From positions 1 to 56,861 of the forward strand of contig JBDHJS010000021.1 in assembly GCA_039586795.1 (NCBI GenBank): DNA of 56,861 nucleotides. Reading direction: 5' to 3'. Under the pieces are notes generated by a model. It did not search any database and was not told where the DNA came from. It worked only from the letters and a program-made list of their open reading frames with translations. The first letter of the stretch is position 1. Each line of letters starts with the position of its first letter. This document shows positions 21,233 through 39,866 of this stretch, one piece after another. The translations under genes were made by a program, and so were the position numbers. Source of the DNA: Gemmatimonadota bacterium (lineage in GTDB: Bacteria; Gemmatimonadota; Gemmatimonadetes; Palauibacterales; KS3-K002).

Positions 21233-22867
21233 ATGAGCAGGAATTCACCGCACCTAACCGCTCTCCTAATAGTTGCCCTTCTATTAGTGGGAGCGCCGGG
21301 CGCCCTGAGTGTGGAGCGTACGCAACAAGATGAAGGCGACAAGGCCCGGGTAGCGGTTGGCGAGATGACGTCAAGCGACGATGAGTGTACAGCCGGGATG
21401 ACCATGGCTATCAGCGACATGTTGTCTTCCGCGCTAGCCAATTCCGATAAGTTCGTCGTCGTCGATGATGTCGGGGCAATGGGGAACACGGGCATCGTCG
21501 TAAATGGCACGATAAAGAAGTTCGATCCCGAGAGCGGCGGAGGTATGCGGGCGCGGGCGCTACGAGAAGTCGGTGTGGACGAGAAATCAGCTGAGATAGA
21601 GATCGATTTTCGGCTCGTTGACGGCGGCAGCGGCCGCGTGCTCGAGTCAAAGTCCGTAAAGGCGAAATCGACCAACTGGGACGCTGACGACACAGGCGGA
21701 AGCTGGGTCGAGGACATCGTTCTAGCGGGGGCCCTGGGTGAGTACGACGGCGAGCCGATGGAGGATGCGATTCGCGAGGTCCTGGCTCGTGCCGTGGAGA
21801 TGATCGGCAAGGAGATTCCTGACGAGTACTTCCGGTTCACGGGCGAAGAGCAGCTAGGTGTAGCGGCAGGGGTCGCCGGCGGCGCGTCAGGGTCCGCGGG
21901 TGTGGCGGAAGACATGAGCCTGTTCACGAGGTATGATTTCGTGCCGGGCAACAAGATCATCTTCTATGACGACATGGCCGACGAAGAGGTCGGTGAGTTC
22001 CCCTATCGCTGGAACTTGGATTCGGGTGTATACGAGGTCGTCCGCTTCGGCGGCGAGTTCTGGATCATGGCAACAGATGATGGATCCGTTCGCCCCAGGA
22101 TCCCCGATGCGGAGCTTCCGACGAAATACACGGTCGAGCTGGAGTTCTACAATCACGGTCCGGAGTACACGGGCAACTACTTCTACTTGCATTGGGTCGG
22201 TGATGACGGCCGCAATATCGGGTCGTTCGGCGTCTACAGTAACGAGAGCACGTGGCTTGAGATCGGAGGCAGATCGCTTGCCGACAAGAAGCTGGCCACG
22301 GAGCTGACGAAAGGCATACACACCCTGCGAGTCATGGCCACAACGCGCTCTATCAAGTGCTACGTGGACGAAGAGCGTGTGTGCAACGTGCCGAAAGTGG
22401 AGGGCTTTGCTCCGGTCGGCTTCCGTCTACGCCACCGGCCTTACCGGGATCCCGACAACCCCACGTTGTTCAGGGGCTTCCGATTCGCTGAAGGCGGCAA
22501 GAGCATGCGCGATCAACTGGATGAGGACGGAAAGATCGTCACGCACGGCATACTCTTCGATTCCGGCTCATACACGATCAAGGGCGAGTCCTACAAGACC
22601 CTCGCCGATATCGGACAGCTCTTGCAGGATGACCCCGAGCTGAGACTGTCCATCGAGGGGCACACCGACAGCGATGGGTCGGAGGAACAGAATCAGGCCC
22701 TTTCACAGAATAGAGCGAACTCTGTCCTCGAGTACCTGATCGCCACCTACAGCATAGAGAGGGACCGACTGGAGGCTAAAGGGTGGGGAGAAGCGAAGCC
22801 GATCGATGCAAACGACTCGGCCGAAGGCAAGGCGAACAACCGGCGCGTTGAGCTCGTGAAACTGTGA
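21233..22867 (+). CDS. Exported OmpA-family protein with an N-terminal CsgG/HfaB-like domain
   Basis: Signal peptide; N-terminal ISDMLSSAL..SDKFVVVD and IDFRLVD...GRVL; C-terminal OmpA motifs ILFDSGS, IEGHTDSDG, NQALSQNRA and NRRVE. Confidence 0.85.
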   Translation: MSRNSPHLTALLIVALLLVGAPGALSVERTQQDEGDKARVAVGEMTSSDDECTAGMTMAISDMLSSALANSDKFVVVDDVGAMGNTGIVVNGTIKKFDPESGGGMRARALREVGVDEKSAEIEIDFRLVDGGSGRVLESKSVKAKSTNWDADDTGGSWVEDIVLAGALGEYDGEPMEDAIREVLARAVEMIGKEIPDEYFRFTGEEQLGVAAGVAGGASGSAGVAEDMSLFTRYDFVPGNKIIFYDDMADEEVGEFPYRWNLDSGVYEVVRFGGEFWIMATDDGSVRPRIPDAELPTKYTVELEFYNHGPEYTGNYFYLHWVGDDGRNIGSFGVYSNESTWLEIGGRSLADKKLATELTKGIHTLRVMATTRSIKCYVDEERVCNVPKVEGFAPVGFRLRHRPYRDPDNPTLFRGFRFAEGGKSMRDQLDEDGKIVTHGILFDSGSYTIKGESYKTLADIGQLLQDDPELRLSIEGHTDSDGSEEQNQALSQNRANSVLEYLIATYSIERDRLEAKGWGEAKPIDANDSAEGKANNRRVELVKL

Positions 22868-22945
22868 GGTAGAAGCACTACTAATAACGATTATATTTAG
22901 CTGTGCGTTGACCCCACCTCCATTCGACACTTCGTGAGGTGATAC

Positions 22946-23161
22946 ATGGCTGTGAGGAGAGTGAGGAACAGGAGCTTCCGTTCCGCGACCGTCCGTGGAT
23001 CGTGGGGTTGTCCGTTGACCAAGAGCCGCACCAACTGGTGCTACCGTATGTGCATGCCCGTTAACGGATTAGGCGCCTGCGGGCGGATCGCTCCCCACAC
23101 GTTGAGAGGTCGCACCGACCTGGCTATCGAGAAACAGCTCGCGAACGCGCGCACAAGGTAA
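22946..23161 (+). CDS. Small basic Cys-rich protein (71 aa)
   Basis: GAGGTG SD 4 nt before ATG; sits alone in the intergenic gap; followed by a strong terminator; C-x9-C-x3-C-x8-C followed by His. Confidence 0.7.
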   Translation: MAVRRVRNRSFRSATVRGSWGCPLTKSRTNWCYRMCMPVNGLGACGRIAPHTLRGRTDLAIEKQLANARTR

Positions 23162-23188
23162 CCAGGTTCATAATAGAGTTCAGAATAC

Positions 23189-23230
23189 AAACGCCCCGCA
23201 GTTCACCGAGAGCTGTGGGGCGTTTCTGTT
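23189..23230 (+). terminator. Rho-independent terminator
   Basis: AAACGCCCCGCAGTTC-accga-GAGCTGTGGGGCGTTT followed by CTGTT. Confidence 0.85.
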
Positions 23231-23314
23231 CCAGGACGCCGGCCACGTCCGCTTTTCCTCGCGCGTGAGCTCAGGCTGGCGCAGTTCTGAAATACCAGAT
23301 TAGCTTGCCTGGTC

Positions 23315-24298
23315 ATGGAAGAGGTTACTCGTCAACTCATCGAGCATGGATACCTGATCCTATTCGTCTGGGTGCTCCTGGATCAGGCGGGCCTGCCTTT
23401 GCCGTCGGCGCCCGCGCTACTGGCAGCTGGGGCCCTTGCCGGCCTGGGTGAACTGAGCCTCGCTGGGGTTCTGCTGACTGCGGCCGTCGCCTCTCTACCG
23501 GGTCACATCTTGCTTTACGATATCGGCCGGCGCCGCGGCGGACCCGTGCTCGGTCTGGCCTGCAGGATATCCCTCGAGCCGGATTCTTGCGTTCGCCGGA
23601 CGGAAGAGCTCTTCGTCCGTCACGGGGCACGAGCGATCTTCTTCGCCCGCTTCGTTCCCGCATTGGAAACTGTCGCCCCAGCACTCGCCGGCGTCTTCCG
23701 GATGCGCTTCAGCCGCTTCCTGCTCTTTTCATTATCGGGCATGGCAATGTGGCTGCTGATCTTTATCGGGCTGGGGTTTCTGCTCGACCAGCAGCTTGTT
23801 CGCGTCTCACAGCTCCTGGGCCGGCTTGGTGAAGGGATGTTCATCATATTGGGCGGCACGTTCGTGGCATATCTGGTCGCGAAGTATGTTCGGCGACAAC
23901 GATTCATCCGGGCTCTTCAGGTTGCCCGCATCACGCCAGATGAGCTGAAACGGAAACTGGACGCCGGCGACGACATTGAGATCGTCGATATGCGTCACGC
24001 GCTGGATTTCGAGGCCGAACCCGAGACGATTCCGGGGGCCAACTTCATTCCCCTCGAGGAGTTCGGCGAGCGATACAAGGAAATCCCGCACGACCGAGAA
24101 GTCGTGCTCTACTGTACTTGACCGAACGAAACGACGAGTGCCCGGGTGGCGCTTCTCCTCAGCAACCGTGGAATCAAGAAAGTCCGACCGCTCGCCGGAG
24201 GCCTCGAGGGTTGGCGCCGCCGCGGCTATCCGCTTGCTGGCGGCAAATCGCCCGTTAGCACTCCTCCCTCGTCAGTTGATGGCGAAGCAGTAGAATAA
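23315..24298 (+). CDS. DedA/VTT-rhodanese fusion, probable selenoprotein (Sec at TGA 24119-24121; 327 aa)
   Basis: DedA motifs (LDQAGLPLP, FFARFVP), then a rhodanese domain interrupted at VVLYCT*; the same frame continues PNETTSARVALLL..RGIKKVRPLAGGLEGW..RGYPL to TAA 24296-98. Confidence 0.85.
24135..24155 (+). promoter_or_regulatory. Candidate bacterial SECIS hairpin
   Basis: GAGUGCC-cgggu-GGCGCUU stem-loop; the G-containing apical loop begins about 21 nt 3' of the UGA. Confidence 0.6.
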
Positions 24299-24913
24299 GC
24301 CGTTCCCTCCGGTCCCCCGCAGGTTCTCCTGGCTGCAACCCCGCGAGCCGTGAGCGGAGTTCCATGATGAGGGGTTGGCGCCCCCGCCGGTGCGGTCGTG
24401 ATGCCCGACTTGGGCCGTCCCCTCGCCGTTGCTCGTCCAGTTCCTGCAGTTATCGTAGACTTCACCCGTGAAGGCGGTGCCGTCGAGATTTGAGCCCGTG
24501 AGAATGTCGTGCATGTTGGGACTGTCGCCTCGGCCGCGCACCATGTCCCCATTTTCCGTCAGAGCCGTCTCTTTGTTGATGTTGTTGTCTTCGCTATGCA
24601 GGTTGGCGACGCTTTCGGCGATCATCACGCCTTCGGCGTTGTACCACGGGCCAACACCGATTCGGTCCCGAGCGTGCACGGCCGGCTCGACGGTCGTCGC
24701 GACCGTGCTCAGATAGGCTCGCCACTCCAGACTTCCGGCGCCAACCGCCTCGGCCAACCTCTGACAGTGCTGGTCCGCGCCCGCTAGGCCGCCAAGATTT
24801 GCTCCGTCACCCGGTCCCACACTGGTGAGGAAGAAAGTCATCGGACGGTCCTGCCGCTCGGCCGGGACGCCCAAGAGCAACAATGCGACCAGTATCGCGG
24901 ACACCTTCGCCAT
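24272..24913 (-). CDS. Exported endostatin/C-type-lectin-like domain protein
   Basis: AAGGAG SD before ATG 24913; signal peptide; FFLTS, NLGGLAGADQHCQ, WRAYLS, ARDRIG.GPW and C-terminal FYCFA. Confidence 0.8.
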   Translation of the reverse strand: MAKVSAILVALLLLGVPAERQDRPMTFFLTSVGPGDGANLGGLAGADQHCQRLAEAVGAGSLEWRAYLSTVATTVEPAVHARDRIGVGPWYNAEGVMIAESVANLHSEDNNINKETALTENGDMVRGRGDSPNMHDILTGSNLDGTAFTGEVYDNCRNWTSNGEGTAQVGHHDRTGGGANPSSWNSAHGSRGCSQENLRGTGGNGLFYCFAIN

Positions 24914-25083
24914 CACAGGCTCCTTTCGCACGATTGTTGGTGTTGTTCGCACGGAATGTGGGTGCGCCCCTTTACTCTCGCTAGGGGTAGGGAGTGGCTG
25001 AGCAAGTGCAGGAATGTTGCTCGGCAGAATGGCTGGGCTCATCTTGTCCTCTAGTCCAACGCGGAAACCGAACGGCTGCCATT

Positions 25084-38213: not shown

Positions 38214-39866
38214 ATGCGGTATGCGTCTATAGTGGCAGGTCTTGTATTGATCTTTGCGGCTTGTTCCGGCGACGATCAGCCGGCAGATGATATCGGCCTG
38301 GCAGCAGGAAGCGTGGCGGTCGAAGTCACGGACGCCTCGGGAACGCCGCTCGGGACCGTCGTGCTGACACAATCATGCAGCGACGACGCTGTTGTTCATC
38401 TGGGGCGCGGTATGGCGCTGCTCCACAGCATGACCTACGAGGCGGCGCGGGCTGAGTTCGCTTCGGCGGTGGGAACCGATGGCGAATGCTCCATGGGATA
38501 CTGGGGACAGGCGATGACCTACGTGCACCCGCTCTGGTCTGACCCACCGAGTCAGCAGGATTTCGATCGCGCCCGCGGGCTGCTCGATAAGGCACGGGCC
38601 AGCGCCGAAGGCGATCACGAGATGGCCTATGTTGACGCTTTGGACGCCTACTTCGCGGCAGGTCGTGGTGACTCGGAGAAACCCAACCTGGTTGGCTTCG
38701 AGAACGGTTGGCGCGCGTTCCACGAGAAGTATCCCAACGACCCCGAAGCGACCGCCTTCTATTCCCTGGCTCAATTGTCCACGGTCGACCCGGGTGACAA
38801 GACGTTCGCGAAACAGAAGGCTGCGGGCTCCATGGCCGAGGGTTTACTAAGGCAAATTCCCATGCACCCCGGCGCTCACCACTACGTCATCCACGCCTAC
38901 GACAACCCGGCGCTGGCCGAGTTGGCTGTGGAGGTGGCGCGAAGTTACGGCAACGTAGCTCCCGAGATCCCTCACGCGTTGCATATGCCGACGCATACGT
39001 TCACACGGCGAGGCCTTTGGGAGGAATCGATCGATTGGAACCGTCGGTCGGCCGATGCAGCGCTGAACTTCCCGGTCGGCGATCAGATCTCGCTCCACTA
39101 TTTCCACGCGCTGGACTACCTGGCGTATGCCTTTCTGCAGACCGCCGAGGACAAGAAAGCGATGGAAGTGATGGAGGAGATGAACAACGTTAGGCCGCCA
39201 TATCAGCCGCACGTGGCCAGCGCCTACACGTTCGCCGCCGTACCCGCCCGCTTGGCTCTCGAGCGGCATAAGTGGGCCGATGCCGCGGGACTCGAGCCCC
39301 GACAGCCCAGCGCTTATCCGTGGGAGACCGCGCCAGCCATGGAGGCGATCACCTACTTCGCTCGGGCGCTCGGCGCCGCGCGCAGCGGGCGGTTCGAGCA
39401 GGCGCGCGACGACCTGGCGGTCCTCACGGCGTTCCAGCAGAAGGTCGCCGCGGGTAACGCCTATTGGGGGACGCAGGTCGAGATTCAGCGGCTTTCCGCT
39501 CTGGCATGGCTGAAGTTCGAAGAGGGTGATCGCCAACAGGGGCTGACGACGATGCGCGCCGCCGCCGAGCTCGAAGCGAGCACGGAGAAGCACCCTGTAA
39601 CTCCAGGGGAAGTGCTTCCAGCGCGCGAGTTGCTGGGCGACATGCTTGTTGAGCTGGAACGACCCGGGGAGGCTCTTGCTGAATACGAGGCGGCGCTGGA
39701 CCGCAGCCCCAACCGTTTCAATAGCCTGTACGGTGCCGGACGCGCGGCCGAGCTGAGCGGCGATGAGAACACGGCACAGCGATACTACCGAGCGCTCCTC
39801 GAGGTAACGGCGAACGCCGATACGGAACGGAAGCGCCTGAAGCATGCGAAGGAGTACGTAGGCTAA
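38214..39866 (+). CDS. TPR-repeat lipoprotein
   Basis: Lipobox FAAC; CSMGYWG.AM, HPGAHHYVIHAYD and HALHMPTHTF motifs; TPR helices. Confidence 0.85.
   Translation: MRYASIVAGLVLIFAACSGDDQPADDIGLAAGSVAVEVTDASGTPLGTVVLTQSCSDDAVVHLGRGMALLHSMTYEAARAEFASAVGTDGECSMGYWGQAMTYVHPLWSDPPSQQDFDRARGLLDKARASAEGDHEMAYVDALDAYFAAGRGDSEKPNLVGFENGWRAFHEKYPNDPEATAFYSLAQLSTVDPGDKTFAKQKAAGSMAEGLLRQIPMHPGAHHYVIHAYDNPALAELAVEVARSYGNVAPEIPHALHMPTHTFTRRGLWEESIDWNRRSADAALNFPVGDQISLHYFHALDYLAYAFLQTAEDKKAMEVMEEMNNVRPPYQPHVASAYTFAAVPARLALERHKWADAAGLEPRQPSAYPWETAPAMEAITYFARALGAARSGRFEQARDDLAVLTAFQQKVAAGNAYWGTQVEIQRLSALAWLKFEEGDRQQGLTTMRAAAELEASTEKHPVTPGEVLPARELLGDMLVELERPGEALAEYEAALDRSPNRFNSLYGAGRAAELSGDENTAQRYYRALLEVTANADTERKRLKHAKEYVG

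Follow-up and report, generated by a model that had tools for sequence, protein, structure and literature searches.

A DedA-rhodanese fusion gene whose in-frame UGA very probably encodes selenocysteine

The locus and its reading frame

Within the window (the whole 56,861-nucleotide stretch of DNA analyzed here), a gene opening with an ATG is interrupted, directly after the peptide VVLYCT, by an in-frame TGA at codon 269 (Table 1). The sequence-only reading had remarked that the open reading frame halts in the middle of a rhodanese domain and that the same frame runs on for 58 codons, and our own reading of the frame bears this out: the post-TGA segment (PNETTSARVA...VRPLAGGLEGW...GYPL) is terminated by a TAA at positions 24296 to 24298. 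The database entry for the gene is a 268-amino-acid product ending at the UGA. In the read-through protein, both PF09335 (DedA/VTT; 61.8 bits versus a gathering score of 33.9) and PF00581 were found above their cut-offs, and the motif at the site, with the UGA read as selenocysteine (Sec), would be C267-T-U269-PNE.

Table 1. Features of the DedA-rhodanese gene, with positions in the window
Feature	Position	Strand	Remarks
Full gene	23315..24298	+	Read-through product (UGA as Sec) of 327 aa; DedA/VTT membrane domain and C-terminal rhodanese
DedA/VTT domain, residues 29-154	23399..23776	+	UptA/DedA-like; below NCBIfam UptA cut-offs
C83-x8-C92 pair (CRISLEPDSC)	23561..23590	+	In helix-turn-helix of DedA domain; not present in E. 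coli YqjA; predicted to face the cytoplasm
Rhodanese domain, residues 207-302	23933..24220	+	Complete only with UGA read through
C267	24113..24115	+	Aligned with canonical rhodanese active-site cysteine (3tp9, 6pfz, 5ve3 chains); 189/189
In-frame UGA	24119..24121	+	Predicted Sec269; Cys in orthologues; two residues past canonical catalytic position
Predicted SECIS hairpin, GAGUGCC[CGGGU]GGCGCUU	24136..24154	+	Invariant loop G at 24144; loop begins 21 nt past UGA

The TGA is not an assembly error, since a contig from an independent, second public run spans positions 24062 to 24568 and carries the same TGA without a single differing letter, a comparison of contigs rather than of raw reads; the sequencing error that the sequence-only reading had allowed for at this codon was thus not encountered. 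In a contig from another public run the TGA was likewise unchanged, but this contig extends only about 15 letters past it and was not counted as bridging. Two 151-nt contigs from an RNA run fall within the gene, with the UGA outside both, and do not establish its transcription. The public runs in which the stretch was found derive from marine or sediment metagenomes.

The gene is a solitary one, flanked on one side by an OmpA-domain gene and on the other by a convergent gene. The former (positions 21233 to 22867, forward strand) encodes a CsgG-like domain fused to an OmpA C-terminal domain and does not lie beside the gene in relatives; the latter (24272 to 25042, reverse strand) shares 27 bases with the 3' end of the selenoprotein gene and has weak DUF1554 and LenA/LenB-like matches, all below cut-off. 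Across 140 loci, no neighbor was conserved between lineages, with synteny confined to the clade level (at most 11 of the 140), and no recurrent neighbor pointed to sulfur or selenium metabolism. A promoter and terminator scan of the gene's strand yielded nothing informative save one terminator-like site at 23234 to 23250.

Signals and machinery for selenocysteine insertion

A hairpin close to the UGA had already been pointed out in the sequence-only reading, and as far as its position is concerned, this observation stands: the bacterial SECIS model, as given in PMC13188914, has a G in the first two loop positions and a loop 16 to 37 nt from the UGA, and the hairpin agrees with that model in having its loop at 21 nt and a G at loop position 2. 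Its stability, however, is unremarkable. Compared with shuffled sequences, the hairpin was not more stable (z = 0.04 for positions 24119 to 24160 and -0.92 for 24130 to 24160), and in an 82-nt fold a different structure was preferred, with the hairpin absent from the best fold. An Rfam scan of positions 22800 to 24500 gave no match, and a loose filter for a hairpin plus the motif let through 3076 TGA sites in the GC-rich genome to which the window belongs, too unspecific to delineate a selenoproteome. Since the single-sequence fold is no better than shuffles, the significance of the hairpin lies wholly in its conservation.

This conservation was evaluated in a set combining metagenome and genome loci, with 161 Sec sequences, 154 of them unique; the metagenome part came from a scan, returning at least 120 loci, with a pattern that constrained part of the 5' stem but neither the loop nor the 3' strand. 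The second loop base is a G in all 154 unique Sec sequences versus 2 of 18 Cys forms, and four or more contiguous stem pairs are present in 149/154 versus 1/18. When the same peptides were synonymously recoded over 500 rounds, the number of sequences with at least four pairs averaged 27.8 and never exceeded 47, compared to the 149 observed. Among 65 hand-picked diverse sequences, the covariation score was 0.290, versus 0.106 after shuffling and at most 0.166 with slid partners, and changes on both sides of the stem were seen in 53 cells, versus a shuffled mean of 21.8. Judged by this conservation and covariation, the hairpin is the predicted SECIS element of the gene. The codon that provides the loop G encodes R277, which is found in 75 of 76 Sec forms versus 56 of 113 Cys forms; being near-invariant in the former and present in only half of the latter, this residue tracks the SECIS rather than catalysis. 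The RNA element thus appears to shape the protein, fixing an amino acid that drifts in the Cys forms.

Two further genes with an in-frame TGA were observed in the same genome, outside the window. One (C80, TGA at 39453, reverse strand; L240) is a SelT/SelW/SelH (Rdx) CxxU selenoprotein gene, scoring above the NCBIfam cut-offs, and the loop of its hairpin likewise starts 21 nt after the UGA. The other is a DUF411 (PF04214) gene (C22:122107-122604, reverse strand; L239/L241), in which the TGA lies in the motif KSPT-U-GCC. A TGA was found inside 23 of 26 matches to this family, and 19 of the 20 loci inspected had it at the KSPT-U-GCC position, together with a conserved hairpin with the loop GGKTC. 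DUF411 is absent from Table 1 of PMC13188914, and a literature search joining DUF411 and selenoprotein found nothing.

The machinery for Sec insertion, the presence of which the sequence-only reading had left to be established, is complete (selA, selB, selC and selD): in the genome to which the window belongs (4.68 Mb, 97.8% complete), selA, selB, selD and a tRNA-Sec all score above curated cut-offs, and selD itself contains an in-frame TGA. This genome probably belongs to the Gemmatimonadota, going by how NCBI names one protein of a related cluster. Among the 120 database homologues listed, 98 have CxCPNE, in line with the earlier expectation of YCxCPNE in DedA-rhodanese fusions, and 21, including the window's own product, end exactly at YCT, YCS or FCT, as judged, for most of them, from the protein ends; one ends earlier. 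The gene is present in 5 of 30 other genomes of the family, in all five with the TGA, and a sample of 401 genomes from the phylum added one more genome, with a protein of 45% identity and, again, a TGA. In a different phylum, apparently Acidobacteriota, 53 of 301 genomes contained the gene, and a search of genome contigs for related loci gave a single locus.

The survey of Sec machinery covered 59 genomes with the gene, namely, 52 of these 53 (one unpublished genome was dropped), six relatives and the window's own genome. A TGA occupies the site in 42 of the 59 and a Cys codon in the other 17, and selA or selB was found above cut-off in 42/42 TGA genomes (both genes in 40) compared to 3/17 Cys genomes; these counts include kin and are hence not independent, for which reason no P value is attached to them. 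One genome (G492) with TGT at the site, and its single TGA elsewhere, was counted as Cys, and another (G008), with only a 3' remnant, was left out of the counts. In this remnant (L042; G008:C71:40-171, reverse strand), the gene is present only from about residue 272 onward, with the SECIS, and is joined to an unrelated membrane-protein sequence that lacks the UGA; it might be either a deletion remnant or a chimeric contig. Over 38 codons compared with three relatives, 19 to 21 of 26 to 30 differences downstream of the UGA fall on third positions, as they do upstream, which indicates purifying selection on the downstream part. Alternation of TGA and Cys at this column, with coding conserved behind it, was what the sequence-only reading had left to an alignment of homologues, and it is indeed present. 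A divergent subgroup (L230 and L232 to L235, in G721, G478, G609, G619 and G588) has L, A or I, not P, after C-T-U, yielding U-LRE, U-LNE, U-ARE and U-IRE; it retains the SECIS sequence and would be missed by the metagenome pattern.

Thinning 189 fused proteins at 80% identity left 123, and on a quick, unrooted IQ-TREE phylogeny of these, Sec and Cys forms interleave, with 15 Sec/Cys changes needed and 6 of these forced by well-supported branches. Since all Sec forms have a single SECIS register in common, the simplest reading would be that the Sec form is old and has reverted to Cys repeatedly; the unrooted tree itself gives no direction.

That the TGA is instead a true stop, a nonsense lesion, an error or a codon for some other residue (Trp or Cys) is hardly credible, even with databases carrying a shortened product for this gene and for 20 homologues that likewise end at the UGA site. 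Such a reading is contradicted by the strict co-occurrence of the TGA with selA/selB, by a conserved SECIS that is absent from the Cys forms, by purifying selection downstream, by the alignment of the site to Cys and by the independent contig. We rejected a nonsense lesion because the TGA is common to several lineages and is followed by conserved coding sequence, and a sequencing error because the TGA is present in the independent contig and in relatives; a code-4 reading as Trp was rejected as well, the codon for Trp in this gene being TGG. By sequence criteria, the apparent stop codon almost certainly encodes Sec, with insertion predicted at codon 269 and the gene predicted to make a full-length DedA-rhodanese selenoprotein. 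The earlier assignment of residue 269 as Sec is therewith supported: neither a genome devoid of Sec machinery nor a sequence error nor a TGA unique to this strain, any of which would have spoken against it, was encountered.

The rhodanese loop, its relatives and the membrane domain

An AlphaFold2 model of the protein (mean pLDDT, 85.2; pTM, 0.71) shows a helical membrane domain and a rhodanese domain, the latter matching single-domain rhodaneses with Z-scores of 13 to 15.6 and root mean square deviations of 1.9 to 4.9 A. The structure searches returned rhodanese matches only and barely probed the DedA part. Because C267 aligns with the canonical catalytic cysteine, the Sec would lie two residues past the usual catalytic position, and in all three printed alignments with solved rhodaneses the loop contains a two-residue insertion. 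C83, C92, C267 and C/U269 are invariant throughout the alignment of 189 Sec and Cys forms, as are P270 and E272 (these two partly through the selection of rows), and the loop has no conserved basic residue. The active-site loop of GlpE-type thiosulfate sulfurtransferases comprises six residues, including a basic one. The protein studied here shares with that type the rhodanese fold and the Cys at the first loop position, whereas its loop is two residues longer and has an invariant Glu and no conserved Arg or Lys.

Sec-containing rhodaneses had been reported before, as was stated in the sequence-only reading, and the CxU type is in fact already catalogued, as 'form 3' (NF041203, rhodanese_LYCAU) in the 119-family table of PMC13188914, where the other rhodanese selenoprotein forms listed have the motifs UxxS, UxxG and UxxxxU. 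NF041203 is the best NCBIfam match of our protein, with which it shares the Y-C-x-U-P-N-E loop, the Sec position and the SECIS register and stem. However, its known members are stand-alone proteins of about 126 to 150 aa with N-terminal signal peptides, whereas the window encodes a 327-aa DedA fusion in which the rhodanese domain is predicted to be cytoplasmic. On the NF041203 model, the window's protein scores 82.7 bits as a whole and 84.6 bits for the domain alone, against a cut-off of 115; three stand-alone loci scored 176 to 188 bits, and two other sequences tested scored 97.5 and 40.7.

Among the metagenome loci listed, at least 120 in number, the fused form outnumbers the catalogued stand-alone form 91 to 19, with 10 too short or unclear; the 91 comprise 54 with a DedA domain, 33 with a linker recognized by pattern and 4 more recognized by eye. 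On visual inspection, a signal or lipoprotein peptide opens all but one of the 19 stand-alone proteins (the 18 are L057, L061, L062, L068, L072, L087, L089, L091, L112, L116, L121, L127, L128, L131, L132, L158, L161 and L169), L113 being the exception. The NF041203 type thus looks exported, and the DedA-fused domain looks cytoplasmic. In summary, the protein is a DedA-fused, predicted cytoplasmic version of a known selenoprotein type and, by the cut-off of NF041203, falls outside that family.

The words DedA, VTT and SNARE do not occur in the text of PMC13188914, and the fusion is absent from that 2026 inventory as far as this text goes. A term search of the BSepDB and deep-Sep main texts for DedA or VTT was also negative, the CxU sequences in the deep-Sep supplements are all stand-alone, a full-text literature search joining selenoprotein, DedA and rhodanese found nothing, and none of the titles listed for DedA plus rhodanese concerned selenium. 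The two-domain architecture and length are shared with the COG0586 DedA-rhodanese fusions containing YCxCPNE, such as P. aeruginosa PA1209 and records from Ralstonia, Xanthomonas and Cupriavidus (the latter three named 'DedA family protein/thiosulfate sulfurtransferase GlpE'), which, unlike the protein described here, have Cys in place of Sec and no SECIS. In five longer Cys-form proteins (P0136 to P0140), the DedA-rhodanese part is followed by an RND membrane-fusion, outer-membrane efflux or PF05099 domain; these may be real fusions or read-through artifacts and are too few to interpret.

The sequence-only reading had described the protein as resembling a membrane transporter or flippase. A DedA/VTT membrane domain is indeed present, homologous to YqjA (hhalign probability, 97.4), but the likeness to a flippase is doubtful, two of the four residues for undecaprenyl phosphate (UndP) flipping being missing. 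UndP flippases are defined by E39, D51, R130 and R136 (YqjA numbering) at the tips of the re-entrant helices (PMC10127716). In the family studied here, an acidic residue is retained at the position of E39 (E or D in 182/189) and a basic one at that of R130 (K or R in 188/189); the equivalents of D51 (A, V, L or I) and R136 (S, N or G; E in the window's protein) are lost family-wide. The best NCBIfam matches of the membrane part are UptA models, at 62 to 66 bits against cut-offs of 250 to 300. Compared to UptA, YqjA and YghB, the protein thus shares the DedA fold with two re-entrant helices and the E39 and R130 equivalents but differs in the loss of the other two, in the extra C83/C92 pair and in the extra rhodanese domain. 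The pair is also present in a 29%-identical homologue from Cupriavidus metallidurans, in which all four Cys positions are kept. Basic segments lie at residues 70 to 105, 128 to 134 and 189 to 206, and from these positive-inside charges we infer that both the C83/C92 pair and the rhodanese domain face the cytoplasm. Residues 81 to 90 have a pLDDT of about 65 in the AlphaFold2 model.

Possible functions of the fused selenoprotein

We tentatively propose the following mechanism, to which, as a whole, we give somewhat less than an even chance. SelB-tRNA(Sec) would bind the hairpin 21 nt downstream and insert Sec at codon 269, giving a DedA protein of the inner membrane whose rhodanese domain lies in the cytoplasm. 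The C267-x-U269 loop would act as a thiol/selenol redox or chalcogen-carrying center, not as a classical one-Cys thiosulfate sulfurtransferase, and would exchange disulfides or sulfane sulfur or selenium with C83/C92 on the same face of the DedA domain. Such a relay might couple this chemistry either to gating of the membrane domain or to the transport of a small species containing sulfur or selenium. Sec usually takes the place of a redox-active Cys, and since it is placed at the second loop position, residue 269 would be the attacking nucleophile.

The YeeE-YeeD (TsuA/TsuB) system for thiosulfate uptake, which works by a Cys relay and combines a membrane protein with conserved Cys and a cytoplasmic sulfur-carrier partner, provides a functional analogy only: its folds are unrelated to those of the window's protein, no homology is claimed, and transport here is predicted. 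YeeE is among the selenoprotein families listed in Table 1 of PMC13188914. By analogy, the transport reading would be favored by a link between one of the DedA proteins of C. metallidurans and selenite uptake, given at second hand in PMC8679861, PMC11422209 and PMC10470534. On the other hand, stand-alone CxU rhodaneses act without the DedA pair, and their loop can hence dispense with C83/C92; one paralogue (L231) has kept C83/C92 and lost the second rhodanese Cys, which, by its sequence, likewise speaks against the relay; and the lack of conserved sulfur or selenium neighbors counts against the mechanism. The four invariant thiols would, moreover, fit metal binding equally well.

Other functions can be envisaged for the same selenoprotein. 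The DedA part might be a flippase or scramblase for lipids, UndP or other, switched by the CxU rhodanese acting as a sensor of redox state or persulfide, an idea we regard as rather unlikely: the rhodanese fusions do sit in the COG0586 subfamily together with all known UndP flippases (PMC10127716), and the retained E39 and R130 equivalents and the UptA models as best membrane matches point the same way, yet the D51 and R136 equivalents are gone and the UptA scores remain far below cut-off. Furthermore, deletion of PA1209 in P. aeruginosa left fosmidomycin sensitivity and envelope integrity unchanged (PMC12893004), although redundancy could hide a role and the comparison is based on the shared DedA-rhodanese architecture rather than on established orthology. 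Unlikely to a slightly greater degree is the binding of a soft metal or metalloid (Cu, Hg, Zn or As) by C83, C92, C267, U269 and Glu272, for uptake, export or reduction. C-x-C/U-P-x-E would resemble a ligand set, the rhodanese fold is also used by As/Sb reductases and ChrE, and a link of DedA proteins to the extrusion of indium has been described (PMC8679861); against this, no metal-resistance neighborhood recurs among the 140 loci, and the match to ChrE is weak (35.9 bits versus a cut-off of 120). Finally, the rhodanese could be an ordinary sulfur or selenium transferase working via C267, for which DedA would serve as a membrane tether and U269 just as a resolving or protective residue. The canonical position of C267 and the fold match to GlpE-type single-domain sulfurtransferases (Z-scores of 13 to 15) agree with this, but the longer, acidic loop without a conserved basic residue does not, and a passive role of residue 269 would sit oddly with the recurrent placement of Sec there and not at 267; we consider this explanation improbable.

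In a bolder reading, DedA-rhodanese fusions would unite transporter and reductase for selenium or sulfur species in a single chain: C83/C92 and C267/U269 would form a relay of four thiols at the cytoplasmic face, receiving substrate that passes via a DedA domain no longer flipping lipid. We offer this reading of a transporter-reductase as speculation, with a low likelihood.

The CxU motif is already catalogued and its fusion to DedA is the new part, the function proposed for it being hypothetical. With the gene systematically cut at the UGA in annotation, as in the homologues ending there, a common membrane selenoprotein is missing from the catalogues. DedA-rhodanese fusions are without a known role, and the predicted Sec points to residue 269, not to the canonical rhodanese Cys, as the reactive one; the invariant C83/C92 pair is a second target, and four point mutants make the question testable. 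If the transporter-reductase reading is true, the Sec form would count as a polytopic membrane selenoprotein widespread among bacteria of soil and sediment, concealed in databases as a 268-aa fragment and possibly involved in selenium acquisition itself.
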